A DNA stretch of 64,000 nucleotides from a bacterium (GCA_037200965.1 JBBCGK010000001.1:800001-864000), one strand, 5' to 3'. Positions 1,169-14,926 are shown, counted from the stretch's first letter. A program made the numbers and translations. Notes: a model not told the origin generated them from the sequence alone.

Positions 1169-1242
1169 TGCCAGATCGTCTAAAGGTAGGACTCGAGACT
1201 CTGAATCTCGCTATCTAGGTTCGAATCCTAGTCTGGCAGCCA
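1169..1242 (+). tRNA. tRNA-Gln (anticodon CUG)
   Basis: 74-nt cloverleaf folded by hand. Acceptor TGCCAGA/TCTGGCA, D-stem GTCT/GGAC, anticodon stem CGAGA/TCTCG with loop CTCTGAA (U33, CUG, A37), T-arm CTAGG-TTCGAAT-CCTAG, discriminator G, encoded CCA. Confidence 0.8.
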
Positions 1243-1398
1243 ATTTGAACTCTAAGCCTCCAGCCTTCAATATGAATGACGGAAAGCTTCAAACGGTTTT
1301 AAAAGGCGGTGCATCAAGGCAGGACTGAAAAGTCTCTAAAAGAAAACTTTAACGTGCACAACCTCCTCGAAAGAGGACGGAAAAGTAAGGGCAAGGCA

Positions 1399-3291
1399 AT
1401 GAAAATGGATATGAACAAACAAAGCTCAAACAATAAAAAAGTACACCTCACCTCCGCCAATCTCTCCGAGGAGAAGCTGTTTGAGCTACGCCGCATCCTT
1501 CCCGAAGCGTTCAGCGAAAACAAGATTGACTGGGAGAAGCTCCGCACCGTTCTTGGTGACGCAGTAGACGCCCATATCGAGAAGTTCGGCTTTACCTGGG
1601 CAGGAAAAAGCAACGCTATCAAGAATGTTTTGATACCAAGCAAAGCCACACTCAACCCCGCTCCCGACGAGAGCGTGAAGTTCGATGAAAGCGAGAATCT
1701 CTTTATCGAAGGCGACAACCTCGAAGTCTTGAAGCTCTTGCAAAAAGCGTACTTCGAGAAGGTGAAGATGATTTATATAGACCCGCCATACAACACGGGC
1801 GGCGACTTCGTGTATAAGGACAACTTTGCCGCACCGCTCGACAACTATCTCAAGCAGACCGGCCAGAAGAACGGCAACGGCGAGCATCTCACAACCAACA
1901 AGGAGACCAACGGCCGCTTCCACAGCGACTGGCTTTCAATGATGTACCCACGCCTCAAGCTCGCGTGGAATCTTTTGCGTGATGATGGAGTGATATTTGT
2001 TTCGATTGACGATAACGAAGTGCATCATTTGCGAATACTAATGAATGAGATTTTTGGTGAGGAAAACTTCATCACTAATTTTGTTTGGCACTCTAGTACA
2101 GGTGGTGGTATCAGAAGCAAGTTTGCAAACCAGTCTCATCAATACGTTCTATGCTATGCAAAGAGTGTAGAAGACGTTGAGATGTTCTATGCGCCTCTTT
2201 CTGAAGATGCGAAGAAGCAATATAAGAAAGAGGATGAAAAAGGAGTCTATCGGGAGAAGGATTTTGCTTGGAAAAACTCATCGTGGGGAGCAAATCAAAA
2301 ATACTTCATCGAGTGTCCTGATGGTGAAAAAGCGAGACCAAAGGACGGGTATCTTTACCGCTTCATCGAACCAACTTTCAAGGAGAGTCTGGCAAATAAT
2401 ATGGTTGTCTTCAAAGAAGCAAGAAATAGTCCACTGGTAAATGAAAAAGGCGAGCAATCAAAATGGAACATCTATATCAAAAAGTATTTAGGTGATGGGA
2501 CAGGTGCTCCTTCATCAGTCATTCCGCGAGATTTAGTAGGAATCAATAATGAAGGCACTACAGAACTCAATGAACTGTTTGGTTCGAGTTTGTTTGAAAG
2601 CCCGAAGAATGTCCGGCTTTTGACATACCTACTCTCGTTAGCAGATAGCGATGATGGCGACATAATCCTCGATTTCTTTGCTGGCTCTGGTAGCACCTCT
2701 CACGCAGTGATGGCTCTGAACCAAAAGGATGGAATCAATAGAAAGTGGATTGTGGTTCAACTTCCAGAAAAGACTGACACGGATAGTGCCGCGTACAAAG
2801 CTGGATACAAAACCATTGCTGAACTTTCTGTAGAACGCATACGTCGCGCCGCGAAAAAGCTGGATGTCCAAGACGGCTTCAAGGTATTTAGACTGGCAGC
2901 ATCAAACTACCCAGAGAATACTTTTGAGTTCGACCCAGACAAGGCCGAGGAAGAGAACAAGGCGGCCTTCGAGGATTATTTGAAGCAAGCAAAGCGCGCC
3001 AAGCTTATTGACGACCTAGACGAGACGAGCGTCATCTACGAAAACATCGTCAAGGAAGGATTCTCGCTCAACTCCAAGATTCAGGAAGGCGTGCCAGGAA
3101 ACAACAAGGTCTACACCATCACCGACGGCGACCGGCAGTTTTCTATCTGCCTCGACCGTTCGATTGATGACACGACCGTAAAGAACATCACGGAGTGGGC
3201 TAAAGGAGCGACCTTTATCTGCTTCGATAATGCGCTCTCTGACAGCCAGAAAGCAAACCTCGGCCTCCACGTGGAGCTGAAAACGATATAA
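1399..3291 (+). CDS. mod: Type III restriction-modification methyltransferase (Mod, N6-adenine beta-class)
   Basis: DPPY motif (IYIDPPYNTGGDF) precedes the FxGxG SAM motif (LDFFAGSGSTSHAV). About 630 aa, directly upstream of res. ATG at 1399 has an AAGG RBS; the ORF is open from 1309. Confidence 0.85.
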   Translation: MKMDMNKQSSNNKKVHLTSANLSEEKLFELRRILPEAFSENKIDWEKLRTVLGDAVDAHIEKFGFTWAGKSNAIKNVLIPSKATLNPAPDESVKFDESENLFIEGDNLEVLKLLQKAYFEKVKMIYIDPPYNTGGDFVYKDNFAAPLDNYLKQTGQKNGNGEHLTTNKETNGRFHSDWLSMMYPRLKLAWNLLRDDGVIFVSIDDNEVHHLRILMNEIFGEENFITNFVWHSSTGGGIRSKFANQSHQYVLCYAKSVEDVEMFYAPLSEDAKKQYKKEDEKGVYREKDFAWKNSSWGANQKYFIECPDGEKARPKDGYLYRFIEPTFKESLANNMVVFKEARNSPLVNEKGEQSKWNIYIKKYLGDGTGAPSSVIPRDLVGINNEGTTELNELFGSSLFESPKNVRLLTYLLSLADSDDGDIILDFFAGSGSTSHAVMALNQKDGINRKWIVVQLPEKTDTDSAAYKAGYKTIAELSVERIRRAAKKLDVQDGFKVFRLAASNYPENTFEFDPDKAEEENKAAFEDYLKQAKRAKLIDDLDETSVIYENIVKEGFSLNSKIQEGVPGNNKVYTITDGDRQFSICLDRSIDDTTVKNITEWAKGATFICFDNALSDSQKANLGLHVELKTI

Positions 3292-3293
3292 CT

Positions 3294-5924
3294 ATGAAGT
3301 TCAAGTTTGACGCAAACCAAGATTTTCAAATAAACGCAGTCAACGCCATCGTTGGCGTCTTTGAAGGTCAGCCGAAGCGTCAAAGTGTGGTAGTAAATGT
3401 GCCCGCACTTTCCGTTTCCGGCTCATTGCCGCTCCAAACTACATACGGCATCTATCCGAACGAGCTGACGCTTTCCGACGAGGAGGTGTTTGCCAACGTC
3501 TGGAAGATTCAAGAGCAAAACAAAATCGGCAATGGCGGCACGGTTGAGGAGTACGACTTTTCTATCGAGATGGAGACGGGTACGGGTAAGACGTATGTGT
3601 ACCTTCGTACCGTCTTTGAACTCAACAAGCAATACGGATGGAAGAAGTTTATCGTTCTCGTGCCGTCCGTCGCCATCCGCGAGGGCGTCATCAAGACGCT
3701 CCAAATCACCAAAGACCACTTCGCCGAGCTGTACGACAACGTGCCGTACCGCTTCTACGAGTACCAGTCCAAGAACATCTCGCAGGTGAAGCGCTTTGCG
3801 GAATCCAGCAACCTGGAGATTATGGTGATGACGGTAGGTGCGTTCAACAAGGACGCGAACGTGCTCTATGCCGCCCGCGACCAGATGCAGGGCGAGCAGC
3901 CTATCAGCTACATCCAGCGCAGCAACCCCGTCCTCATCCTCGACGAGCCGCAGAATATGGAAGGTGAAGCGACGAAGGAGGCGCTCAAGAACTTCAACGC
4001 GCTTGCACGCCTGCGATACTCCGCGACGCATCGCAATCCGTACAACCTCATGTACCAGCTCACGCCGTTCGATGCGTATCAGCTCGGCCTCGTAAAGAAG
4101 ATTGAGGTGTATTCCGTTACGGATGACGACACCGGCATCTCGCGCCCGTCGCTCAACCTCATCTCCGTTGAATCCGGCAAGGCGCTCAAGGCAAAGTTAG
4201 AGGCCATCGTGAAAGATGCCGACGGCGCATTGAAGCGCAAGAAGCTCACCGTCAAACAGAACGACGACCTCGCGCAGAAGACCGGCAACGACGTATACGC
4301 CGGCTATATCGTGGACGAGCTTGACGCCGATGCGCCAGACCTCGGGCAGATTGGTAGGATTCGCTTTCGCAACAACGTGGAGATTCGCCAGGGTGAAGGC
4401 GTAGCAAACAACAACGAGCAAGTGATGCGCGAGCAGATTGAGCAGACCATCCGCCGCCACTTCGAGAAACGCAACCAGCTCCGCGATATGGGCATCAAGG
4501 TGCTCTCCCTCTTTTTCATAGACAAGGTAGACAACTACGTTCAATCAGACGGGTTTATCCGCTCTGCGTTCATAGCCGAGTTCAATCGCCTCAAGAAAGA
4601 CTATGGCGCTGACGGCATGGACGTGGATACCGTCCACAAGGGATATTTCGCCAAGCGCGGCGAGGAGTATTTGGAGCGAGAGTCCAGCATCGCCGAGAAC
4701 CAGGAAGCATACGAGCTGATTATGAAGGACAAGGAGCGCCTGCTTTCCTTCGATGAGCCGACGGAGTTCATCTTCTCGCACTCCGCACTCAAGGAAGGAT
4801 GGGACAACCCAAACATTTTCAATATCTGCACCCTGCGCGAGACCGTTTCAGTCATCCGCAAGCGCCAGGAGATTGGCCGAGGTATGCGCCTCTGCGTCAA
4901 TCAGGACGGAGAGCGTATTTTCTTGCGCAGCGTCAACCTGCTCTCCGTGATTGCAAACGAGAGCTATACGGAATACGTCTCATCGCTCCAGGGCGAATAC
5001 GAGGAGGACGGTATCTACAAGTCTGCGCCGTTGCCGAACAATGCCAAGCGAAAGACCACGGTGAAGCTCAAGAAAGATTTTGATAAGGACACGGACTTTG
5101 CTGGTATCTGGGAACGCATCTCGAAGAAGACCCGCTATGTCGTGCAGGTTGATAGCGAGCGCGTCATCGAAGCGTCCGCAAAGCAGATTGCGAAGCTCCA
5201 TCTCGCAAAGCCCAAGATGCGCGTCGAGCGCGCGGGCGTGAACATCGCGGCCGAAGGCATCACCGCAAACATCGTAGGCACCCGTGCCGAGGATTTGAGC
5301 CAGACCAAACGCACCATTGACCCTATCGAACTCATCAAAAACGAGACCAAGCTGACGCGCCACACGGTCGCGGAGATTTTGGCGAAAGCGGACAATACCG
5401 ACTCCTTCCTCAAGAATCCCGAACGCTTCTGCTTCGAGGCAACGCGCATCATCAAGGCCGAGCTGGTGAAGGATTACGTTTCCCAGATTCGCTATGAGGT
5501 ACTGCCGGAGCAGTATGACCTCAAGCAGTTCGAGGACATCCCGAGCTACAAGGACGCGACGCACAAGGTGAACAACTCCATCTACGACGCCATCGTGTAT
5601 GACTCCGACGTGGAGAAGAACTTTGCCGTCGCCCTCGATGCCGACGAGCGCGTGAAGCTCTTTATCAAGATGCCCAACTGGTTCAAGGTGAACACGCCTA
5701 TCGGCGGCTACAACCCCGACTGGGCAATCGTTACGGCCAAGCGAGACCTCCAGGGCAATGAGGAGAAGGAGCGCGTGTATTTCGTGATTGAGACGAAGGG
5801 CGACATCTCCAACATGCGCGAGAGCGAAGGACAAAAGATTGCTTCCGCCAAAAAGCACTTTGAAGTCATCGAGGTGAACTACAAGGAGGTCGAGAATTAT
5901 GGACAGTTTGCTGAACAACTATGA
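3294..5924 (+). CDS. res: Type III restriction endonuclease Res subunit (SF2 helicase plus C-terminal PD-(D/E)xK nuclease)
   Basis: Walker A METGTGKTYV, DExx-like ILDEPQN, C-terminal VIETKGD nuclease motif. 876 aa, 3 nt after mod. Confidence 0.85.
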   Translation: MKFKFDANQDFQINAVNAIVGVFEGQPKRQSVVVNVPALSVSGSLPLQTTYGIYPNELTLSDEEVFANVWKIQEQNKIGNGGTVEEYDFSIEMETGTGKTYVYLRTVFELNKQYGWKKFIVLVPSVAIREGVIKTLQITKDHFAELYDNVPYRFYEYQSKNISQVKRFAESSNLEIMVMTVGAFNKDANVLYAARDQMQGEQPISYIQRSNPVLILDEPQNMEGEATKEALKNFNALARLRYSATHRNPYNLMYQLTPFDAYQLGLVKKIEVYSVTDDDTGISRPSLNLISVESGKALKAKLEAIVKDADGALKRKKLTVKQNDDLAQKTGNDVYAGYIVDELDADAPDLGQIGRIRFRNNVEIRQGEGVANNNEQVMREQIEQTIRRHFEKRNQLRDMGIKVLSLFFIDKVDNYVQSDGFIRSAFIAEFNRLKKDYGADGMDVDTVHKGYFAKRGEEYLERESSIAENQEAYELIMKDKERLLSFDEPTEFIFSHSALKEGWDNPNIFNICTLRETVSVIRKRQEIGRGMRLCVNQDGERIFLRSVNLLSVIANESYTEYVSSLQGEYEEDGIYKSAPLPNNAKRKTTVKLKKDFDKDTDFAGIWERISKKTRYVVQVDSERVIEASAKQIAKLHLAKPKMRVERAGVNIAAEGITANIVGTRAEDLSQTKRTIDPIELIKNETKLTRHTVAEILAKADNTDSFLKNPERFCFEATRIIKAELVKDYVSQIRYEVLPEQYDLKQFEDIPSYKDATHKVNNSIYDAIVYDSDVEKNFAVALDADERVKLFIKMPNWFKVNTPIGGYNPDWAIVTAKRDLQGNEEKERVYFVIETKGDISNMRESEGQKIASAKKHFEVIEVNYKEVENYGQFAEQL

Positions 5925-6169
5925 ACTTCTATGGAGTCTTTATCGGGATAGACAGATACGCCTCTCCAAGTATCAACATGTTCGTGGACGAAGTGGCGGC
6001 AAACCGGAAGCTCGACACCGACAAGGTTGCGGCGCTCGCTGATGGCCGCACCTACGTTGGCACGGATGCCGTGAGCAACGGGCTGATTGACGGCATCGGC
6101 AGCATCCCCGAAGCGTCCGACTATCTCACTCAACAGATTGGTGAGCAGGCGTCTGTGTGTTGGTACTAA
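5921..6169 (+). pseudogene. Fragment resembling the C-terminal region of signal peptide peptidase SppA (S49); likely gene remnant
   Basis: 82-aa ORF with ...VDEVAANRKLDTDKVAALADGRTYVGTDAVSNGLIDGIGS..., resembling the SppA C-terminal helix region; no catalytic N-terminal part present. Overlaps the res stop and the DUF2726 start. Confidence 0.4.
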
Positions 6170-6699
6170 AAATTATGAACCTCTACGTCATCGCAGCAAT
6201 CATCATCGCCCTCGTCATCGTACTCGCTATACTCAAGGCGGTTGTTGAAGGCAGTGGTGGAGACAAGGAAAAGTCGAAGTACCGCTACACTCGCAAACAG
6301 TTTTTCCTTACCCGCGCCGAGCACGAGTGCTATGACGCCCTCGTTGCAGCGGTTGGCGATAAGTATTACGTCTTCGCGCAGGTACACCTTCCGACCATTC
6401 TCGATAACAAGGTGAAGGGGCAAGATTGGCGTGCCGCGCTTGCGCACGTCAGCCGCAAGTCCGTTGACTTCGTGCTCTGCGACAAGGCATACATTTCGCC
6501 GAAGCTCGCCATTGAGCTGGACGACAAGAGCCACGAGCGACCCGACCGGCAAGAACGGGACCGAGAAGTTGAGCGTATCTTGAGTGATGCAGGACTACCG
6601 CTTCTTCGACTGGAGAATCGCGGGGCGTTCAATACTGCGGAGCTGCTACAGAGGATTGATGATGCAGTGAAAGGTTTTGGTGAAAAAACCTCCTCCTAG
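6157..6699 (+). CDS. DUF2726-like protein (restriction-endonuclease-like fold, N-terminal TM helix)
   Basis: N-terminal hydrophobic helix then FLTRAEHECYDAL...VDFVLCD core typical of DUF2726. Sits at the edge of the RM island. Confidence 0.5.
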   Translation: MLVLKIMNLYVIAAIIIALVIVLAILKAVVEGSGGDKEKSKYRYTRKQFFLTRAEHECYDALVAAVGDKYYVFAQVHLPTILDNKVKGQDWRAALAHVSRKSVDFVLCDKAYISPKLAIELDDKSHERPDRQERDREVERILSDAGLPLLRLENRGAFNTAELLQRIDDAVKGFGEKTSS

Positions 6700-7100
6700 A
6701 GAGGGCATCCCCCGCCGAAAGGTCGGAAGCAAAAAGGAAACTACCACCACCCAGATTCCATATTTTCGTAGAAAACATTGAAGATGCACGGGGTATACCC
6801 CTCTGATGTACCTCTGCGTGTCTTCTGCTACAGAATAAGCACTAGAAAGCACACAGTGCCGGATAAAGGGAACACTGGTAAAGCAAGGCCAGGCGCGCGA
6901 CAGTGCTCCTGGCCTTGTGCGGCAGTGGGGTGGCTATGCGGCTACTACCGAGAGTAATTGCTGCATCTGCTGGAGAGAAACGGTAGGATATGGGAACATC
7001 CAGCCAGTTGATAGTTCGTAGTTCCTCCCTCCAAGCCAGCCAACTTGAGGCAGGTTCGGTAGTCCGAGGTGCATCAAAATCGTCTGTTACAATTTTCGTA

Positions 7101-7634
7101 ATGAAAACCATCCTTGTCATTCGACATTCTCATTGGGATGGGCAAACAGATACTCTCAGCCTGGAAGGTATAGCTGATTGCGAAGCAAAGAAGACCACTC
7201 TTGGATCTTTTACTACAGTTATTGCCTCTCCCTTCAATCGCACGGTAGAAGCGGCTCGGCTCCTAAGTGGTAATGATCCAGTTGTCGATGACCGAGCATC
7301 TATGCTCGCCTTAACACCGGAAGAGGCTGCCTGGCTGAAGGAGGCTCGCAAGAACTCTCCGCTCGGAGTGGCGGGGGTTATTTTCGGTCGACCAGATTTT
7401 CTAGAACCAGTAAAAGTCGCTGGAGAAAAGTGTCTTTCGCTTATAGAAGAGACGCTCGAAAAGTTACCTCTTGATGGGAGAGCACTTATTGTCTCGCATG
7501 ACGGGACTATGGTTGCAGTCGAGAAGTTACTCAAAAATGAACCGTTTTCTGGTCCGTTAGACCATACCTACGGAAACCTTGAAGGATTTGAGGTTGATGC
7601 TAACCTTAAATTCACTAAGCTCGCCTTCACATGA
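7101..7634 (+). CDS. Histidine phosphatase family protein (phosphoglycerate-mutase-like)
   Basis: N-terminal LVIRHSHW (RHG motif), C-terminal SHDG. Start moved to ATG 7101 inside the ORF open from 6990. Confidence 0.6.
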   Translation: MKTILVIRHSHWDGQTDTLSLEGIADCEAKKTTLGSFTTVIASPFNRTVEAARLLSGNDPVVDDRASMLALTPEEAAWLKEARKNSPLGVAGVIFGRPDFLEPVKVAGEKCLSLIEETLEKLPLDGRALIVSHDGTMVAVEKLLKNEPFSGPLDHTYGNLEGFEVDANLKFTKLAFT

Positions 7635-8608
7635 TCGTCCCTGCAAAAGAACTCCTAGATTTTGCCTACAAGAAATTCTCTGTGGGTGCCTATAACATCC
7701 ACAACCTCGAGCAGTTGATGGGACTCCTCTATGGAAGCCAAAAATCAAACGCGCCCTTTATCGTTCAGGCGTACCCGAGCACCCTCAACTACACGGACGC
7801 TAGCATGCTCGAAGCCCTTTTCCATGAGGCAGACAAGCTTTTTCCTGACCTGATTTTTGCCGTCAGTATTGATCATGGCGATGAAGCTACATGTATGAGA
7901 GCTATTGATTCGGGAGCGTACTCACACGTGATGATAGACGCTTCAATGGAAACCTTTGAGAAGAATATCGAGATTACGAAACGTGTCGTCGATCATGCGC
8001 ATTCTCGCGGCGTATCCGTGGAAGGTATGGTAGGAAAACTCGGTGGTCTGGAAAAGCACATGAAAGTTCTCGACGTATCCGAAGTGCAATTGACCACCGT
8101 TGAACAGGCACGAGAGTTTGCGGAGAGAACTGGCTGCGACAGTCTTGCTGTGTCTATCGGTACACTACATGGTGCTAACAAGGCTCCAGACGGCATACCT
8201 CGAAAGGTAGACCTCGATCGTCTCAAGGAAATAGGTGAAGCGCTCGAAGGTACTCCACTTGTTATGCACGGTTCGTCCTGCCTGCCACAGGAGGAAGTAA
8301 GACGGGTAGACGCCGCAGGAGGAAAGCTTGAACGCGTCGGAGGAATGGATGAAACACAGCAAAGTGAGGTACATAAACTTGGAGTTGCTCAGATAAATGT
8401 AAACAGCGATGGCCTTCTTATCTGGACGCGCTCGATCAGAGAATATCTGAGGGACTATCCAGGCGTGATTGATTTACGTGAGTCGGGCAAGGCTTTTATG
8501 CAGGAGTATGCGAGTTTCATAGCTCACAAGAATGATGTGTTCGGCTCATCCGGCAAACTTGATGCGTTGACAGAACACTACGAAACCCCATGGACATTAA
8601 TGAACTAG
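7631..8608 (+). CDS. Class II ketose-bisphosphate aldolase (fructose/tagatose-bisphosphate aldolase family)
   Basis: GAYNIHNLE, SIDHGDE, VMIDASMETFEKNI, GKLGGLE and HGSS motifs in class II FBA order. Confidence 0.8.
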   Translation: MIVPAKELLDFAYKKFSVGAYNIHNLEQLMGLLYGSQKSNAPFIVQAYPSTLNYTDASMLEALFHEADKLFPDLIFAVSIDHGDEATCMRAIDSGAYSHVMIDASMETFEKNIEITKRVVDHAHSRGVSVEGMVGKLGGLEKHMKVLDVSEVQLTTVEQAREFAERTGCDSLAVSIGTLHGANKAPDGIPRKVDLDRLKEIGEALEGTPLVMHGSSCLPQEEVRRVDAAGGKLERVGGMDETQQSEVHKLGVAQINVNSDGLLIWTRSIREYLRDYPGVIDLRESGKAFMQEYASFIAHKNDVFGSSGKLDALTEHYETPWTLMN

Positions 8609-9348
8609 AAAAAATCGATACGACCGTTATCAGCGACCTAATCGTCTCGCGTCTTCCATTGCCACTGCAAACATCACAAAAAGAGAATTTACTCTCGCCC
8701 AAGCCTCAAGCGTTACAAGACGTCATTGCTGATATCGAAAAGATAGAACATGAATGGAAGCTTGATACTGCTGACGAAGGTCACACTTACGGACGTAAGC
8801 ATGCTGGTGAGACTATTCAACTTTGGTCTGTGCCGCCTAAGAGTGCGCAAGTACTGGAGAATCTCGTTGTACTTACGGGCGCTAAGACCATTCTTGAAAT
8901 AGGAACCTCAGCAGGATACGCTGCGCTTTTCTTAGCTCATGGTGCCAAAGCAAATGGCGGACATGTTTATACGATCGAGCTTCTTAAGGAGAAAGCTGAC
9001 CTTGCTCGGGGTAATTTTGATAAGTCTGGCCTTGATAACATCACGCTTATAGAAGATGAGGCGTCAAAAGTCTTGAGCGCTTGGGATAATGGGAAAATAG
9101 ACTTTGTTTTTCTCGATGCCGATAAGGAAAACTACGGAAAATATTTTGACCAACTTGTACCACTTATGAATATTAGTGGTCTTATCGTAGCTGATAACGT
9201 GAATGACTACGGTCACATGATGGAAGATTATTTGCAGAAGGTAAGTGGTACGCATCTTCCAAAGACGAGAACTGATCACAGGGTTAAGAGCTATTACCTA
9301 GCAATGCTTGAAAATGGGTTGATGGTTACTCAGAAGATATCTGAATAG
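8590..9348 (+). CDS. Class I SAM-dependent O-methyltransferase (family 3, caffeoyl-CoA OMT-like)
   Basis: ILEIGTSAGYAALFLA SAM motif and DFVFLDADKENY motif. Confidence 0.75.
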   Translation: MDINELEKIDTTVISDLIVSRLPLPLQTSQKENLLSPKPQALQDVIADIEKIEHEWKLDTADEGHTYGRKHAGETIQLWSVPPKSAQVLENLVVLTGAKTILEIGTSAGYAALFLAHGAKANGGHVYTIELLKEKADLARGNFDKSGLDNITLIEDEASKVLSAWDNGKIDFVFLDADKENYGKYFDQLVPLMNISGLIVADNVNDYGHMMEDYLQKVSGTHLPKTRTDHRVKSYYLAMLENGLMVTQKISE

Positions 9349-9526
9349 TTTTATTATTGAGAATTATTTTACTTTTCAAGCATCCTGAGAAATTAGGTCC
9401 AGAAGTACATATTTGGACTTCTCAAAAGGTAGTTTGGGCTCATATCTGCGACAGCCGACCTCAGCGAGAGCAGGACTAGCGTTCCAACACCGTCCCAGAC
9501 TCCCGCTCGATAAGCTTACTTTCTTC

Positions 9527-10126
9527 ATGGAGAAAATAGAGCAGCTGCGGGATGAGGTGCACAATCTATATGCCCAAAAACTTCCTGGCCGTGCTGACTG
9601 GGCTGACTGGATCTATGATAAGCATGTCGTTCTTGTTGGCAATGAAGCAAGGAAGATAGCCGAAATGTACGGAGGAAGTCCGGAGCTTGCAGAGGCTGCT
9701 GGACTTTTGCACGATGTGGCCGACGCAGTAATGAAGCGGCAGGATCCGAATCATGAAAAGGAAAGCCTGCGTATTGCACGGGAGATGCTGCAGAAGACCG
9801 GATTTGGCGACAAGGAGATAGCCATAGTGGTAGACGATGCGATCGCGAAGCATAGTTGCCATGGAGAGACTCGGCCCGTCTCTGCAGAGGGGAAGGCAAT
9901 GGCAGCGGGAGACGGTGTCGTTCATCTCACAAGTGATTTTTATAAGATTGCCGAGGCGGGGAAACTTGGTCATAAATCACCACGAGAGGTTGCAGAGTGG
10001 GCCCTGCCAAAACTAGAACGCGATTTCACCAATAAGATTGCCTATGATGATTTAAGGGAGGAGATACGGCCAGATTACGAACAACTTAGGAAACACTTTC
10101 AGGATCTAGCCTCGGCCGGGGTGTAG
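9527..10126 (+). CDS. HD-domain phosphohydrolase
   Basis: H...HD motif (LLHDVAD) with downstream metal-binding histidines. ATG 9527 preferred; the ORF is open from a TTG at 9413. Confidence 0.6.
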   Translation: MEKIEQLRDEVHNLYAQKLPGRADWADWIYDKHVVLVGNEARKIAEMYGGSPELAEAAGLLHDVADAVMKRQDPNHEKESLRIAREMLQKTGFGDKEIAIVVDDAIAKHSCHGETRPVSAEGKAMAAGDGVVHLTSDFYKIAEAGKLGHKSPREVAEWALPKLERDFTNKIAYDDLREEIRPDYEQLRKHFQDLASAGV

Positions 10127-10170
10127 AGGTCCAACTTCGTACCGGACAGCCAGCCGACAGTTTCGCCCGC

Positions 10171-11304
10171 TTGCCATCCTGCACAAGTTCAGATACATAT
10201 GGCACTCCTCCTAACTGAGGAGCGATGCGTCAATTCAACATACTGAAGGATACCGAGGGCTGGTTGTATATGCGCGAGCGGAGCATACGCTTCCTGCATA
10301 TGAGGAACAACGACGAGGTGCGGCATCGGGTCAAGGTGCTGGACTTCTGGAAAACGCACGGGGAGCGTGCGGCCAGGGACGCCTTCAGCGTCTCTCGCCG
10401 CACGCTCTTCCGTTGGCAGGCGAAGCTCGACCGCGCGCACGGGAGACTCGACGCGCTCGATCCCAAGTCGACGGCACCGAAGAATCGGAGGAGACGCATC
10501 GTCCTCCCCGAGGTCGAGACGTTCATCCTGAAGGAGCGCGCGGAGCATCCGAGGCTCGGCAAGGCGAAGCTCGCAGCCCTGCTGCGGGAGGACGGGTACC
10601 GGGTATCCGAATCGTATGTCGGGAGGGTCGTCGCGGACCTCAAGAGGAGAGGGCTGCTGCTCCCGCACAAGCCGCTCTCATACTATGCGCGAAGCGGCAC
10701 GTATCGGGAGAAGCCCGTATCGAAGCGCACGAAGCTGCGCAGGCGGCACAAGCGGGGCATGGAGCTCGACACCGTCGTCCGCTTCATCGACGGCGTGAAG
10801 CGGTACGTCCTGACCGCCATCGATGTCGAGAAGAAGTTCGCCTTCGCCGGCGCGTATACCGTCCACTCCTCCGCGTCCGCCGCCGATTTCCTCGCGCGCG
10901 TCATCGCGGTGTGCCCCTTCGACATCACGGAGCTCCAGACCGACAACGGCCCGGAGTTCGCCAAGAACTTCGAGGCGGGGTGCCGCGCCCTCGGCCTCAC
11001 CCACTTCAATACGTTTCCCCGCAGCCCGAAGATGAACGCGTTCGTCGAGCGGTTCAACCGGACGATCTCGGAGGACTGCATCATGCTCAATCGGCCGCTC
11101 CTGCGGGACGACGTCGCGGCATTCAACCTGAAGCTGGTCGACTGGCTGCTCTGGTACAACGCCCGGCGTCCGCACGAGTCCCTGGGACAGGTGCCGCCGC
11201 TCCGGTATATACTCTCCTCATTAACGGCCGAGGAGTGCCAGAGGTACTGGACGCGTACACATCCTTGACAGAATTTAGACCAGGCTGCATTGTGGCGTCG
11301 GCAA
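10171..11304 (+). mobile_element. IS481-family insertion sequence (boundaries tentative)
   Basis: Single rve/DDE transposase ORF. Imperfect inverted repeats TTGCCATCCTGCACAAG (10171-10187) and reverse complement of CTGCATTGTGGCGTCGGCAA (11285-11304) share TTGCC...CACAA cores. Followed by a sharp GC shift. Confidence 0.35.
10225..11268 (+). CDS. IS481-family DDE transposase (N-terminal HTH plus integrase-core rve domain)
   Basis: TAIDVEKK..., LQTDNGPEF, HFNTFPRSPKMNAFVERFNRTI motifs typical of the IS481/IS3 integrase core; 347 aa. Confidence 0.8.
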   Translation: MRQFNILKDTEGWLYMRERSIRFLHMRNNDEVRHRVKVLDFWKTHGERAARDAFSVSRRTLFRWQAKLDRAHGRLDALDPKSTAPKNRRRRIVLPEVETFILKERAEHPRLGKAKLAALLREDGYRVSESYVGRVVADLKRRGLLLPHKPLSYYARSGTYREKPVSKRTKLRRRHKRGMELDTVVRFIDGVKRYVLTAIDVEKKFAFAGAYTVHSSASAADFLARVIAVCPFDITELQTDNGPEFAKNFEAGCRALGLTHFNTFPRSPKMNAFVERFNRTISEDCIMLNRPLLRDDVAAFNLKLVDWLLWYNARRPHESLGQVPPLRYILSSLTAEECQRYWTRTHP

Positions 11305-11355
11305 GCCCTCTTGAGGCCTGTCCCTTGACAGTCGAAAAGAAAGGAGAAATCGAAT

Positions 11356-11616
11356 GTGAAGGACCCCCCTTGTTACAGGGGTATTGTCAGGAACATTCTT
11401 CCTGGCAACGACCCGTACGCCGTCGTTGAATGCGACGGCGTGCCTGACCTCGTTACCGTTTCTCTGGGCGCACAAAGAGGCGTTTGGGAAGACTCAAGCC
11501 TGCCAGTGGTAGGCTCTGCAGTGATCCTCAGCGACGTTCAGTGCGTTCATGGGAAGTGGCGGGCCTACAACGCCCGGTTGTTCAAACCATCAGATGGAAG
11601 AGGAGTCCATGGCTAA
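11356..11616 (+). CDS. Hypothetical small protein (GTG start, strong AAGGAG RBS)
   Basis: 86-aa ORF with AAGGAG 8 nt upstream of GTG; first gene of the high-GC module. Confidence 0.4.
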   Translation: MKDPPCYRGIVRNILPGNDPYAVVECDGVPDLVTVSLGAQRGVWEDSSLPVVGSAVILSDVQCVHGKWRAYNARLFKPSDGRGVHG

Positions 11617-12262
11617 CAAAGGAGTCATGGGGATTCTTGAAAGTATCGGGGCAGTCGAAGTCGTGAATGACGGAGACCCACCCCCACCACCTTCAAGTTT
11701 CCCACCCACCGCAGCGCCAACACCGGTCCTGCAGCCAAGTGTGGCTGTACCGGCTGCCGGCACGGCCGACCAGGGTATGGTCGGTAAAATCCGTGGGGCT
11801 GTCACCAGCCGCACGCATTCGCCTGGATTTGCGATTTTTCTGGCAAATTTCGAGAAGGCAAAACAAGCCTTCCCGAACGACCCTCGAAATGCCGCAGCCG
11901 CAGCGCTTGTCTTTTCTTCGCAGACCTCGCAAGAGATCGGCGCAGAACTGAGTCGCTCTGTGGCGGCATCTCTGGCCGAAGCCGGATCGCAGATCAATGT
12001 CGACATCGCGCAACAGCGCGAGAGGTTGGCAGGCCAGCTCGATGGCGAAGAAAGCAGTCTCGACGGTGAGATTCACCGATTCGAGGCGGATCTCGCCGCC
12101 ATCCAGAAAAAGCTCGACGATGCGAAAGGCGCGAAAGCGCAGATCGCGAGTCGTCGTGCTGATGGCAGGGCAGCCATCGACTCTCGTCTCGCAACGGCAC
12201 TCGCCAGTCTGGCAGTCGTTCGTGACGAGATCGCAACCATCAAATCAATATTGCCGTCGTAA
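11609..12262 (+). CDS. Hypothetical coiled-coil protein with Pro-rich linker
   Basis: MANKGVMGILESIGAVEV..., PPPPPSSFPP linker, C-terminal heptad-like Ala/Gln/Arg-rich region. GGAG RBS; overlaps the upstream gene by 8 nt. Confidence 0.45.
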   Translation: MANKGVMGILESIGAVEVVNDGDPPPPPSSFPPTAAPTPVLQPSVAVPAAGTADQGMVGKIRGAVTSRTHSPGFAIFLANFEKAKQAFPNDPRNAAAAALVFSSQTSQEIGAELSRSVAASLAEAGSQINVDIAQQRERLAGQLDGEESSLDGEIHRFEADLAAIQKKLDDAKGAKAQIASRRADGRAAIDSRLATALASLAVVRDEIATIKSILPS

Positions 12263-12294
12263 CCCGGCGGCTAGGAGAAAAGGATCAAAGGAAA

Positions 12295-13326
12295 ATGGCT
12301 CAACAGTCGAACATGAATGACTTCTTCGACCAGCTCCCGACTCCCCCACGGGAGAAGGCGATACGCTGGGGGTTCTATGCCGGTGTGAGCTTGCTCGCGC
12401 TTGGCGTGGGACTCAAGATCATGCCTCCTGTCAACAATCTGCTCGACATGATGCTTCATGGCGCGTGGACTCTCGGCGAGATCGGTCTGGTCGGCGCCAG
12501 CATCGCAGTCGGCACAGTGGCTTTTACCAGCCTCTGGCCGTCGTACCGTCGCTTCATGGAAAGTGTCGCGCGGCGCACAACCGTCGCGATCTATGGCGAC
12601 GATCCGATCACGCCGCTCCACATGTGGCTCGCGGAAGTGAGCTCGGATTGCGAACAGATCGAAGCAGCGCAAAGTGAAGTCAGCGGCATCATCGAGGAGA
12701 ACAAGAAGGCCGCCTCTGACAATCTGACGCTGCTTGCGCAATCCGATGCCAGGTTTGCTTTCGCGGTACGGAAGCACGGCGAAGAGAGTGACCAAGCCAG
12801 AAACGCCTCCGCGGAATCTGGTGGCTACAAAGATCGGGCCGAAAATGCAGACCGCATCAACGTCCCGCTCATTGAGCTTTATGAACTGCTTGATGAGATC
12901 GCGAAAGCGAATCGTCATGTCGAGCATGAAGCCAAAATCGCCATCGAGACAGCGGAGCAGGAATGGCGTGCCGCCCTCAAGGCAGAGATTGCCATGGGCG
13001 CGGCGACTCGCACTCTCAACAAGCGCAGTGAGCGGTATGTCAACGCCACCCTGGCGTTCGGCATCATCCGCCAGAAGTACGCCGGCAACTTCGGCAAGCT
13101 TCGTTCGCTGCGTCGCCTATCGGAGCAGGCCATCAATTCGGCGGCTCTGGAAGGAGGTGTCAAACTGCAGGAATCGCTTGCCCGCCTCCGTGCGGAAAGC
13201 AAGTCGCTTCTCGGTCACGCCCCCGCGCTTGCCGTCCCGGATTTCTCCGGAAAGGGCAGGCAGAAGGTTCCGGTTCCAGCTGGTTCCGGGCCCGCGTCCC
13301 TTCGTCTGTTCGACGAAGAGAAGTGA
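12295..13326 (+). CDS. Hypothetical membrane protein (2 N-terminal TM helices plus long coiled-coil)
   Basis: Two hydrophobic helices in residues about 20-80, then an extended charged helical region. Confidence 0.5.
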   Translation: MAQQSNMNDFFDQLPTPPREKAIRWGFYAGVSLLALGVGLKIMPPVNNLLDMMLHGAWTLGEIGLVGASIAVGTVAFTSLWPSYRRFMESVARRTTVAIYGDDPITPLHMWLAEVSSDCEQIEAAQSEVSGIIEENKKAASDNLTLLAQSDARFAFAVRKHGEESDQARNASAESGGYKDRAENADRINVPLIELYELLDEIAKANRHVEHEAKIAIETAEQEWRAALKAEIAMGAATRTLNKRSERYVNATLAFGIIRQKYAGNFGKLRSLRRLSEQAINSAALEGGVKLQESLARLRAESKSLLGHAPALAVPDFSGKGRQKVPVPAGSGPASLRLFDEEK

Positions 13327-13369: not shown

Positions 13370-14926
13370 GTGGAACACCAGATTACCCTCAAAGGAAGAA
13401 TCTACCTCGGACTCGGAATCGCTGCGCTAGCGGTAATTCTGATCTGGGTCCTTCAGAACTTCATCCCGACCTCGTGGAAGGATGCAGTCACCGAGACAGT
13501 CGCGCCGGGCGGAAGCCCGACGACGCTTTCCAGTGACGGTTCGGACGTGATCAACGTCTGTGTCGTCACCTGGGGTGGCTACGTGGGTGGCGAGTACTTC
13601 AACGGCGGCTTCAAGCCGTCGGAGCAGTCCCGCTACTACAAGCAATACGGCCTGAAGGTCAAGTTCCAGATCATGGACGAGTTCGTTCCCTCGCGGGATG
13701 CGTGGAAGTCCGACAAGTGTCATCTTCTCTGGGCGACCGTCGACGCCTTCACCACGGAGGCGGCGAACCTCCAGAGAGCGGGGTACGACCCCCGGTTTGT
13801 CTTCCAGGCGGACTGGTCGCGCGGCGGCGATGCTATCGTCGTCGGCCCCGGCATCAATTCGATGCGGGACCTGCGTGGCAGGACGATTGCGGTGGCCTAC
13901 GGGACACCGTCACACACGTTCTTGCTGCGCATGCTCGAATCGGCAAACATGCAGAAAGGAGACGTCACCCTTATCGATACCGGAAGCGCTATCGATGCGG
14001 CCAAGGCGTTCCAGACGCGCAGCGCAGATGCGGCTGTGGTCTGGTCTCCGGATGACGTGGCCAGTGTCAGGGCGATTCCTGGCGCCAAGGTCCTCGTCAG
14101 TTCCAAGCAGGCATCGCACATCATCGCCGATGGCTTCTTCGCGAAGGAGGAATACATCGCGGCACACCGTGAACAACTCCAGCACCTCATCGAAGGCTGG
14201 ATGATCGGTGCCGCCGAGATCAACTCCGATCCCGCGGCGAAGCAGAAGGCTGCAACCATCCTGGCCGACGGTCTCAATCTGTCGGTCGACGATGCTCTGG
14301 CAGCCATCAACAACGTCCGGCTCACCACGTTCGGTGACAACCTGGCGTTCTTCGGCCTCGACAGCAGCTATACCGGCATGACTGGTGAACGGCTCTTCCG
14401 CGACAGCGGCGCGCTGTACCAGAAGAACGGGTACGCAAATCTGGTGCCGAGCGTGCCGGACTGGCGTACGGTCATCGACCTGAGCCTGCTGCGTAACATC
14501 AGCCTGACGGGCCCGGAACATGCGGCCGAAAGCACGGTTCGTTTTGCCGTGCCGACGACCGCAGATGTCAAGGCCAATGCCTTCTCGTCGAAGGCGCTGT
14601 CGGTCCAGTTCTCAATCGGGTCCGCAGTGCTGACTGACGAGGCGAAGGCGAACATCGCGACCAACTTCGTGCCGACGGCACAGTCGTTCGCGAATGCGCG
14701 CATTCGTATCGAAGGCAACACCGACAGCACGGGCAGCCGTGCGATCAATGTCGATCTGTCCCGCCGGCGTGCCCAGGCAGTCGCAGACTACCTGGGCAGC
14801 TTCGGTTTCGATCCCAACCGCTTCATCGTGGCGGGGAACGGGCCGGACAAGCCAGCATGTGGTACGAGCGATGCCGGGTGCCTGGCACAGAATCGTCGTA
14901 CCGACTTCGAGCTGCTGAACAACTAG
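13370..14926 (+). CDS. Membrane-anchored ABC substrate-binding protein (NitT/TauT/SsuA-like) fused to a C-terminal OmpA-like peptidoglycan-binding domain
   Basis: N-terminal TM helix; SBP body (VVTWGGY..., TIAVAYGTPSHTFLL); C-terminal NTDSTGSRAINVDLSRRRAQAVADYLG...RRTDFELL OmpA_C-like motif. GTG start with AAGGAG RBS. Confidence 0.65.
   Translation: MEHQITLKGRIYLGLGIAALAVILIWVLQNFIPTSWKDAVTETVAPGGSPTTLSSDGSDVINVCVVTWGGYVGGEYFNGGFKPSEQSRYYKQYGLKVKFQIMDEFVPSRDAWKSDKCHLLWATVDAFTTEAANLQRAGYDPRFVFQADWSRGGDAIVVGPGINSMRDLRGRTIAVAYGTPSHTFLLRMLESANMQKGDVTLIDTGSAIDAAKAFQTRSADAAVVWSPDDVASVRAIPGAKVLVSSKQASHIIADGFFAKEEYIAAHREQLQHLIEGWMIGAAEINSDPAAKQKAATILADGLNLSVDDALAAINNVRLTTFGDNLAFFGLDSSYTGMTGERLFRDSGALYQKNGYANLVPSVPDWRTVIDLSLLRNISLTGPEHAAESTVRFAVPTTADVKANAFSSKALSVQFSIGSAVLTDEAKANIATNFVPTAQSFANARIRIEGNTDSTGSRAINVDLSRRRAQAVADYLGSFGFDPNRFIVAGNGPDKPACGTSDAGCLAQNRRTDFELLNN

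Follow-up and report, generated by a model that had tools for sequence, protein, structure and literature searches.

A probable mosaic defence island with an apparently intact Type III restriction-modification system beside a tRNA-Gln gene of a Patescibacteria genome

Introduction

Type III restriction-modification (R-M) systems of the EcoP15I/EcoP1I type are encoded by an operon in which mod precedes res. Mod is a beta-class N6-adenine methyltransferase with a central variable target-recognition domain (TRD), and Res joins superfamily 2 (SF2) ATPase motifs to a C-terminal PD-(D/E)xK nuclease. EcoP15I hemi-methylates its asymmetric site, and cleavage takes place at two inversely oriented unmethylated sites after ATP-triggered sliding. 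Here, we describe a locus of the same plan in a stretch of 64,000 nucleotides (nt) of a bacterial genome (GCA_037200965.1, JBBCGK010000001.1:800001-864000; hereafter the window, with positions counted from its first letter). Starting at a tRNA-Gln gene, the segment carries mod and res, an open reading frame (ORF) of 82 amino acids (aa) annotated as 'S49 family peptidase', and a gene of the DUF2726 family (Table 1). Our analysis suggests that it is quite probably an accessory defence island in a variable zone starting from the tRNA-Gln 3' end, made up of an intact Type III R-M system, a degraded cassette and DUF2726, and built as a mosaic by exchange.

Both subunits encoded in the window match those of EcoP15I directly. 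Nevertheless, the Res of the window is about 100 aa shorter than that of EcoP15I (876 versus 970), and the phmmer match between the two spans only residues 56-579, the nuclease end being recognised instead by the Pfam family RE_endonuc. The TRD is unlike that of any allele compared, and no phase-variation repeat was found, mod being free of simple-sequence repeats. Like defence islands and tRNA-adjacent variable regions elsewhere, the locus shows clustered defence genes, atypical composition, insertion sequence (IS) elements, decay products and module shuffling. In contrast to classical tRNA-adjacent islands, it has neither an integrase nor an att repeat, and it lies in a Patescibacteria genome of roughly 1 Mb, a setting in which such islands are less well described.

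The genes that follow res, here or in relatives, also have described counterparts. Ppl is reportedly a single-gene anti-phage PHP-ATPase (Gao et al. 2020). Ppl and NCBIfam TrlF are matched by the gene after res in some relatives of the locus, and this gene of about 1000 aa is absent from the window. The 82-aa ORF resembles the signal peptide peptidase SppA and other S49 proteins only in that its residues 19-82 align with the C-terminal helices of S49 domains. The DUF2726 protein falls close to the Vsr/DUF559/I-Bth0305I branch of nucleases, from which it differs by its N-terminal membrane helix and disordered linker, and by lacking both an association with a C5-cytosine methyltransferase and an intron context.

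Results

The mod and res genes, which lie immediately next to each other in one operon (mod stop 3291, res start 3294), look like a complete and intact Type III pair, because the invariant columns of Res, the length of its homologues and the motif order of Mod are all kept. Mod was recognised by the PADLOC model MTase_III (594.6 bits over aa 13-625) and matched the Protein Data Bank (PDB) chains 6k0w_B (1e-68) and 4zcf_A, the EcoP15I Mod (1.3e-63). Its DPPY motif (aa 128-131) precedes FFAGSG (aa 426-431), which is the beta-class order; D128, P129, P130, Y131, F426, F427, G429 and S430 are invariant in the Mod alignment (A8), with a variable segment between them, and the N- and C-terminal parts of the protein are conserved. 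Res scored 797 bits against the PADLOC model REase_III and matched the EcoP15I Res (4zcf_C, 1.9e-55). It has thousands of full-length homologues of 865-891 aa, many of them from Patescibacteria, the best being 94% and 90% identical. Every column that is invariant across 18 homologues is retained, and these columns hold GTGKT (96-100, Walker A), DEPQ (217-220) and QEIGRGMR (525-532), together with the PD (808-809) and ETK (833-835, the ExK element) of the nuclease.

The original prediction, made by reading the sequence, had proposed such a pair (a beta-class Mod with DPPY, a Res with helicase and PD-ExK motifs), and the Pfam, PADLOC and EcoP15I matches and the invariant motifs agree with it. 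Inactivating mutations in either gene, which it had named as a possible objection, were looked for and none was seen, the motifs of both proteins and the length of Res being kept. It had further read the 82-aa ORF as an SppA C-terminal fragment overlapping the res stop and left by recombination, and the next gene as a DUF2726 protein with a nuclease fold and a transmembrane helix; both descriptions stand in the light of the relatives and of the predicted structure presented below.

Sliding-window identity, blastn and the layers in third-position GC (GC3) indicate that the cassette is a mosaic of recombined pieces, with at least three layers of composition, and that it would have formed by repeated homologous exchange of modules among Patescibacteria. 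Window positions ~1550-2070 and ~2900-5650 are 83-97% identical to one relative (L034; relatives' loci are given by such numbers), where mod and res stand among unrelated genes (Pirin, META, LRR). The TRD at 2074-2658 resembles none of the relatives compared; it could not be aligned to seven of them whose flanking parts are 60-96% identical to those of the window, and is found in this allele only. Towards the end of res, L034 drops from 0.90-0.93 identity to 0.65-0.69, and L036 and L037 rise to 0.85-0.89 and are the closest relatives from there onward. Other close res homologues have a DpnI-like gene (L039) or an NYN gene (L040) as neighbours.

The ends of Logan contigs from two sequencing runs coincide with the inferred module borders: one contig from the same sample (L002) ends exactly at 1242, and others start at 5867, 54 nt before the 82-aa ORF, or end at 10208 (L042). 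We regard these breaks as hints only; co-existing alleles could produce them, and so could k-mers that other genomes have in common with this one. They were not relied on as proof of co-existing variants, since shared k-mers give the same breaks.

The 82-aa ORF is a pseudogene remnant and not a peptidase, despite the label given by the annotation pipeline. Its start overlaps the res stop codon in ATGA, its frame is open, and it ends 5 nt before the DUF2726 ATG. In L036 and L037, whose Res is 90% identical, mod and res are followed by genes for an ATPase (1027 aa), an S49 peptidase (271 aa) and a DUF2726 protein (182 aa), in this order. The ATPase of L036 belongs to the TrlF family of AAA-like proteins (NF045780, 651 bits against a cut-off of 350) and is a relative of Ppl, an anti-phage protein (PADLOC 2.5e-21; NCBIfam Ppl_antiphage 6.8e-29). 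A gene of this family lies 3' of res in L036, L037, L061 and L062; in the literature, only unrelated uses of the abbreviation 'TrlF' were found. The S49 protein of L036 aligns with the B. subtilis and E. coli SppA structures, Ser motif included. At the DNA level, window positions 1405-5924 correspond to L036 2-4584 and positions 5981-6859 to L036 8288-9190. About 3.7 kb of the L036 cassette is thus missing from the window, and 56 nt (5925-5980) stand in its place, where relatives have the TrlF/Ppl-like gene. In the junction alignment, similarity to the end of res stops at the ATGA overlap, and similarity to the S49 gene resumes at ATGTTCGTGGACGAAGTGGC.

Residues 19-82 of this stump always align to the very end, the last ~64 residues, of S49 proteins of 270-300 aa, the best match being 75% identical over residues 211-274 of a 274-aa protein. 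In the S49 protein of L036, they correspond to residues ~207-271, and the Ser motif GASAAYW, as read from the sequence, lies near residue 130. About a quarter of the protein is left in the window, with no N-terminal membrane segment, no catalytic Ser region and no complete S49 domain. Residues 1-18 never aligned in an exhaustive HMMER scan of 1.84 billion representative proteins. In that scan and in a word search of 5.8 billion proteins, the only 82-aa homologues were identical copies from the same organism in other assemblies. The word-index search returned only the query itself and the other matches came from the exhaustive scan, the remaining short ones covering residues 19-82 only and looking like truncated gene calls. 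Because a truncated domain cannot be the ancestral state, the arrangement in the window is the derived one, a scar of deletion or illegitimate recombination that has kept an open frame by chance.

Codons 1-19 of the ORF (5921-5977) encode the orphan sequence MNFYGVFIGIDRYASPSIN. It had no match in the ~125 loci fetched, by tblastn or motif search, and none in Pfam at E <= 10, and it is unlike the N-terminus of TrlF or of any gene that follows res in the relatives. The peptide may resemble the first strand of caspase-like domains.

Two of the relatives show further defence genes around the R-M pair. Past the five-gene cassette of L036, positions 9534-12330 look like an ABC-three-component system (MC6 and an AAA_23/DUF2326 protein), and this contig therefore carries two or three stacked defence systems. 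In L038, mod and res are followed at 9711-12554 by a cyclase-like protein of 271 aa, a 239-aa protein, a PycTM effector and an NfeD/S49 protein, a set that resembles Pycsar and is the second case in which S49-type proteins are associated, independently, with this R-M family.

The DUF2726 gene was identified with a score far above the curated cut-off of its family (PF10881, 103.8 against 24.7 bits). AlphaFold predicts an N-terminal hydrophobic helix, which would span the membrane, then a disordered linker and a PD-(D/E)xK nuclease domain of Vsr-like fold, whose restriction-endonuclease-like alpha/beta core carries conserved acidic and His residues. The best structural matches of the predicted model include the homing endonuclease I-Bth0305I, and the invariant residues include E55, H56, E57, H77, D104, E120, D122, D123 and H126. 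A search for homologues gave 1152 matches, of which the top 120 are 66-86% identical and nearly all 165-184 aa long. Their hosts include Niyogibacteria, Giovannonibacteria, Azambacteria and one metagenome-assembled genome (MAG) labelled Burkholderiaceae. No characterised member of DUF2726 was found in the literature searched. A phage origin was rejected, as no close DUF2726 relative occurs among the viral contigs of IMG/VR, where Res had a single match, of 66%.

In 80 metagenomic loci with close relatives of this gene, the gene directly upstream varies. It encodes an S49 peptidase in L044, L045 and L074, as in L036, and a TrlF ATPase in L061 and L062, the latter having the order mod-res-TrlF-DUF2726. 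Elsewhere after mod and res, an OLD-family ATPase (L065, L067) or a nucleotidyltransferase (L052) takes this place, and in L111, L118 and L121 a ResIII gene directly abuts DUF2726. Other contexts have Schlafen/AlbA_2, Shedu SduA, GmrSD, PD-(D/E)xK nucleases or an SMC-like ATPase upstream, large serine recombinases stand beside DUF2726 in L046, L047 and L124, and an alanyl-tRNA synthetase was seen once. A Type III-like mod/res pair lies upstream in about 8 of the 27 loci that have 8 kb of upstream sequence. Defence operons of many different kinds end in DUF2726, often with a conserved non-coding element after it, and the similarity between its contexts starts ~8 nt before the ATG. In one sub-branch of DUF2726 (L046-L048 and L124-L128; for example L124 8488-9078), it overlaps a conserved ORF of 196 aa without a Pfam family, 88-100% identical between loci, which is absent from the window. 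In L050 (position 8001), DUF2726 starts ~45 nt after what appears from the sequence to be the 3' end of a tRNA gene, GGTTCGAATCCCTCCCTCTCCGCA.

The 400 nt that follow DUF2726 are as conserved relative to L036 as coding DNA, and the homology ends before the next genes. Within the core, two boxes read GCATCTG.TGGAGAGAAACGGTAGGATATGGGAA and AGTTCGTAG.TCCTCCC.CCAAGCCAGCC. With nhmmer, the core was found strongly in nine loci and weakly in three to four, in every case on the strand of DUF2726 and at a distance of 0.1-4.7 kb downstream, sometimes with other genes in between. Indels break all of its reading frames. No Rfam family matched the region at E <= 1, RNAalifold on 4-7 sequences gave a weak energy and no covariation term, and single-sequence folding gave z = -3.2 on both strands and so does not discriminate. 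We rejected a dead copy of the 196-aa gene, since tblastn had no match to it in the window, and the upstream region of a conserved host gene, since no common gene follows the core. A 214-aa ORF at 6990-7634 overlaps the element with its first 37 codons. Because relatives of the element carry frame-breaking indels, the phosphatase-like gene probably starts not at ATG 6990 but at ATG 7101 (MKTILVIRHSHW), which fits the family better.

With regard to the locus, tRNA-Gln, the single tRNA that ARAGORN found in the 64 kb, is both a synteny breakpoint and the left edge of a variable zone, because the genes to its left are syntenic among relatives and those to its right differ. The left flank (permease, ATPase, CTP synthase, FtsX, FtsE and RF2) is conserved in more than 20 relatives, and no gene order is shared with them on the right. 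Their tRNA side differs in every genome, holding for example a HAD hydrolase, an AI-2E transporter or an AAA_21/AAA_15 ATPase in a patch of GC 0.36-0.42. The accessory status of the island is apparent from the permease locus of 24 related genomes of Patescibacteria (L003-L026), where none of the island's genes (Mod, Res, DUF2726 and those that follow) lies within 10 kb, and from the unrelated contexts of the close res homologues. The spacer between tRNA and mod has no homology to the DNA upstream of mod in relatives, and blastn similarity to L036, L037 and L062 begins at 1398-1405, the mod start codon. Relatives found through the permease protein (346-1095) are MAGs labelled Candidatus Kaiserbacteria, Paceibacterota, Nomurabacteria and similar, at 51-73% aa identity, and because of these labels we take the host to be a Kaiserbacteria-like bacterium of the Patescibacteria (candidate phyla radiation, CPR). 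An exact copy of the permease protein lies on the contig JBBCBH010010897.1 of 960,259 bp (GCA_037975565.1), in which the window falls at ~319.3-383.3 kb.

Other parts of the original prediction concerned the boundaries of the island and fared less evenly. It had placed the island at 1169-6699, behind a drop in GC at the tRNA. The drop is real, from 0.59-0.62 left of the tRNA to 0.47-0.50 at 1200-2000 and 0.40 at 2000-2600, and the start at the tRNA stands. The end does not, as the atypical low-GC stretch runs 3.5 kb further, through four metabolic-type genes, to meet an IS481-family element at ~10190. This element, whose transposase (10225-11268) has an rve 'integrase core', lies outside those coordinates and had been missed, as had the mosaic of at least three compositional layers. 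An insertion between the ATP-binding cassette (ABC) permease and its binding-protein gene had also been proposed. This is not supported: in L015, L019 and L020, tRNA-Gln likewise directly adjoins the permease, and no homologue of the binding-protein gene (13370-14926) lies within 10 kb of the permease in any relative. Because relatives have the same adjacency without a binding-protein gene, the tRNA-permease junction is ancestral. The search for a direct repeat of the tRNA 3' end further right, which it had called for, found nothing in the 64 kb except the tRNA itself (25-mer and 19-mer, up to three mismatches), and no relevant direct repeat was seen. The claim that no integrase is present was upheld, as the ORFs at 1243-11270 contain no Phage_integrase or Resolvase match and only the DDE transposase of IS481.

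The layers of the mosaic were separated by the GC3 of each gene. Native genes have values of 0.72-0.82. Res has 0.76, the S49 stump 0.70, DUF2726 0.64, and the N-terminal and C-terminal parts of Mod 0.66 and 0.61. Codon usage is clearly atypical in the TRD of Mod (0.385) and in the genes at 7101-10126 (0.40-0.50); the IS481 transposase reaches 0.87. Second-position GC (GC2) is very low in Mod and Res (0.32-0.33), and a large share of the GC drop in mod and res is due to amino-acid composition, not to foreign codon usage.

Table 1. Features from the tRNA-Gln gene to the IS481 element, in window coordinates
Feature	Position	Strand	Basis or remark
tRNA-Gln(CTG)	1169..1242	+	ARAGORN; Rfam tRNA 60.6 bits; CCA encoded
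Spacer between tRNA and mod	1243..1398	+	156 nt
mod, putative beta-class N6-adenine DNA methyltransferase, 630 aa	1399..3291	+	Pfam N6_N4_Mtase 2.6e-33
Mod target-recognition domain (TRD), aa ~226-420	2074..2658	+	lowest GC of the region
res, putative SF2 helicase-like ATPase with C-terminal PD-(D/E)xK endonuclease, 876 aa	3294..5924	+	Pfam ResIII, DEAD, RE_endonuc
Approximate recombination breakpoint in res 3' end	5650..5700	.	sliding-window identity
82-aa ORF, S49 pseudogene remnant	5921..6169	+	Peptidase_S49 profile positions 96-150 of 154 only
DUF2726, 174 aa from ATG	6175..6699 (GTG 6157 possible)	+	Pfam 6.9e-30
Conserved non-coding region	6700..7100	+	78% identical to L036
Block 1 of non-coding region	6781-6859		palindrome GGGGTATACCCC
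Block 2 of non-coding region (core, ~135 nt)	6942-7076		
Histidine-phosphatase-like gene	7101-7634	+	Pfam, NCBIfam
Divergent class II ketose-bisphosphate aldolase	7631-8608	+	below every NCBIfam equivalog cut-off
S-adenosylmethionine (SAM) O-methyltransferase	8590-9348	+	Pfam, NCBIfam
HD-domain hydrolase	9413-10126	+	Pfam, NCBIfam
IS481-family insertion sequence	10187..11270	+	transposase 10225-11268

Discussion

We read this locus as an ordinary, heavily recombined defence island whose Type III R-M system is apparently functional. By homology to EcoP15I, Mod would methylate a single adenine, at N6, within a short asymmetric sequence specified by its own TRD, and the Mod-Res complex would use ATP to begin sliding on DNA from unmethylated sites. 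Where a pair of unmethylated sites lies in inverse orientation, the PD-(D/E)xK domain of Res would cut, and incoming phage DNA would be cleaved while host DNA is spared. As for the assembly of the island, an L034-like mod-res core, 87-97% identical to that relative, probably received a swapped TRD and an L036-like tail starting inside res, with a separately acquired block of four genes and the IS481 element at its edge, rather than arriving in one integrase event. Downstream of res, a larger cassette once stood, as the comparison with L036 shows, where the same res is followed by genes for a TrlF/Ppl-like PHP-ATPase, an S49 peptidase of the membrane and DUF2726. Everything from the res stop to about codon 207 of the S49 gene was lost in the window by deletion or illegitimate recombination, leaving the in-frame stump that begins at the ATGA overlap. 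In our preferred reading, DUF2726 would be a Vsr-like DNA nuclease tethered to the membrane, an additional defence effector that is co-transcribed with the preceding gene; this is the weakest step of the proposal.

A more classical origin would have an integrase-bearing island insert at the tRNA-Gln 3' end, between the ABC permease and a binding-protein gene, and lose its integrase later. The change in GC and the loss of synteny do begin exactly at the tRNA 3' end, several assemblies, one from the same sample, break at the tRNA, and in L038 a tyrosine integrase gene lies 2.5 kb upstream of homologous mod-res genes. However, contig breaks at a tRNA are expected anyway, since co-occurring genomes share k-mers there. 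The segment has no integrase, the 64 kb hold the tRNA 3' end only once, the permease already stands beside the tRNA, with no binding-protein gene, in relatives without the island, and the pieces differ in their closest relatives and in GC3; we therefore consider this origin unlikely. The opposite proposal, in which the segment is ancestral and its low GC stems from proteins rich in Lys, Asn and Ile, draws on the near-native GC3 of Res and of the stump, on the low GC2 of Mod and Res, which lowers total GC without a foreign origin, and on the frequency of this Type III family in Patescibacteria. It appears quite improbable in view of the GC3 of the TRD and of the genes at 7101-10126, far from native, the absence of any island gene from the locus in 24 relatives, and the occurrence of DNA 88-97% identical to this mod-res pair in an unrelated gene context (L034). 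Still another proposal concerns the 82-aa ORF, which could be a working small protein, such as a stand-alone S49 C-terminal domain that partners DUF2726 and is kept by translational coupling to res. Its open frame, the ATGA overlap and the 5-nt distance to DUF2726 would suit such a role, as would the S49 genes that precede DUF2726 in four relatives. Nevertheless, a functional protein of this kind is very improbable, given that the searches of billions of proteins returned no 82-aa homologue beyond the identical same-organism copies, that the Ser-motif part and the membrane segment are missing, and that residues 1-18 are unrelated to S49.

The role of DUF2726 has a serious rival, to which we give a low but appreciable probability: it could be a selfish, homing-endonuclease-like gene, or mark a hotspot of cassette exchange, and spread by itself to the 3' ends of operons. 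Identities of 66-86% across very different contexts, including the Burkholderiaceae-labelled MAG, the onset of similarity ~8 nt before the ATG, the structural match to I-Bth0305I and the large serine recombinases beside it in three loci all fit such a gene, and mobile-element neighbourhoods and multiple transfers have been noted in the literature (PMC3424549). On the other hand, a membrane anchor is unexpected in a homing endonuclease, DUF2726 is nearly always co-oriented and tightly packed with defence genes, and viral contigs hold no close relative. A further idea, which we put forward as speculative and hold to be doubtful, is that DUF2726 and the ~135-nt element form an undescribed 'end-cap' module of Patescibacteria defence islands, either as a third, nuclease component that works with Type III R-M or as a pair of landmarks driving gene swapping. 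Mod, Res and DUF2726 recur in this order, and what fills the slot between the last two varies. If the end-cap idea were true, the window would be a snapshot of this slot after the loss of its cargo; if the landmarks, a gene and a DNA or RNA site, were the correct version, they would drive the swapping of defence genes into the slot.

Several points weigh against our preferred reading of an exchange-built, functional defence island. The activities of Mod and Res are deduced from their sequences. No true empty site was seen, the relatives at the permease locus being distant (51-73% aa identity), and PADLOC has no model for DUF2726. Because the GC3 of Res (0.76) is near native, the mod-res core could have been in the genome for a long time and need not have been acquired recently. 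Finally, the immediate ancestor may have had another gene after res and not the order of L036, because the 19 orphan codons and 52-56 nt of DNA match nothing that was fetched, the TrlF N-terminus included.

The proposed history explains the puzzling annotation 'S49 family peptidase' as a deletion stump, and it illustrates that a GC drop beside a tRNA need not mean integrase-mediated insertion. The locus would record how defence cassettes are rebuilt in Patescibacteria with genomes of roughly 1 Mb, by TRD swapping, a breakpoint in the res 3' end and cargo loss. The recurrent mod-res-[variable gene]-DUF2726 layout with its conserved element is a lead that could go further: DUF2726 has more than 1000 close homologues, and its regular place at the end of defence operons gives a concrete hypothesis on its function.

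Other features of the region

The four genes at 7101-10126 are co-oriented and have the most foreign codon usage of the region, and they lie beyond the point where homology to L036 stops. Together, they may constitute a small cluster for sugar-phosphate metabolism or the modification of metabolites. At the IS481-family element, the transposase scored 1.3e-49 (169 bits) against NCBIfam transpos_IS481, below the curated cut-off of 224, and matched Pfam rve, rve_3 and HTH_32. Imperfect inverted repeats of 17 nt lie at 10194-10210 and 11230-11246; reading of the sequence revealed no obvious target-site duplication, and the window holds no second copy. The Logan contig break at 10208 suggests that further copies exist elsewhere.

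Near the tRNA-Gln gene of one relative (L010, 3673-5385), a low-GC patch encodes a 570-aa fusion of a LexA DNA-binding domain, an S24 peptidase and an N6/N4 DNA methyltransferase. The binding-protein gene at 13370-14926 of the window encodes an NMT1-type ABC substrate-binding protein with a C-terminal OmpA-like domain, a fusion that is unusual for a binding protein.

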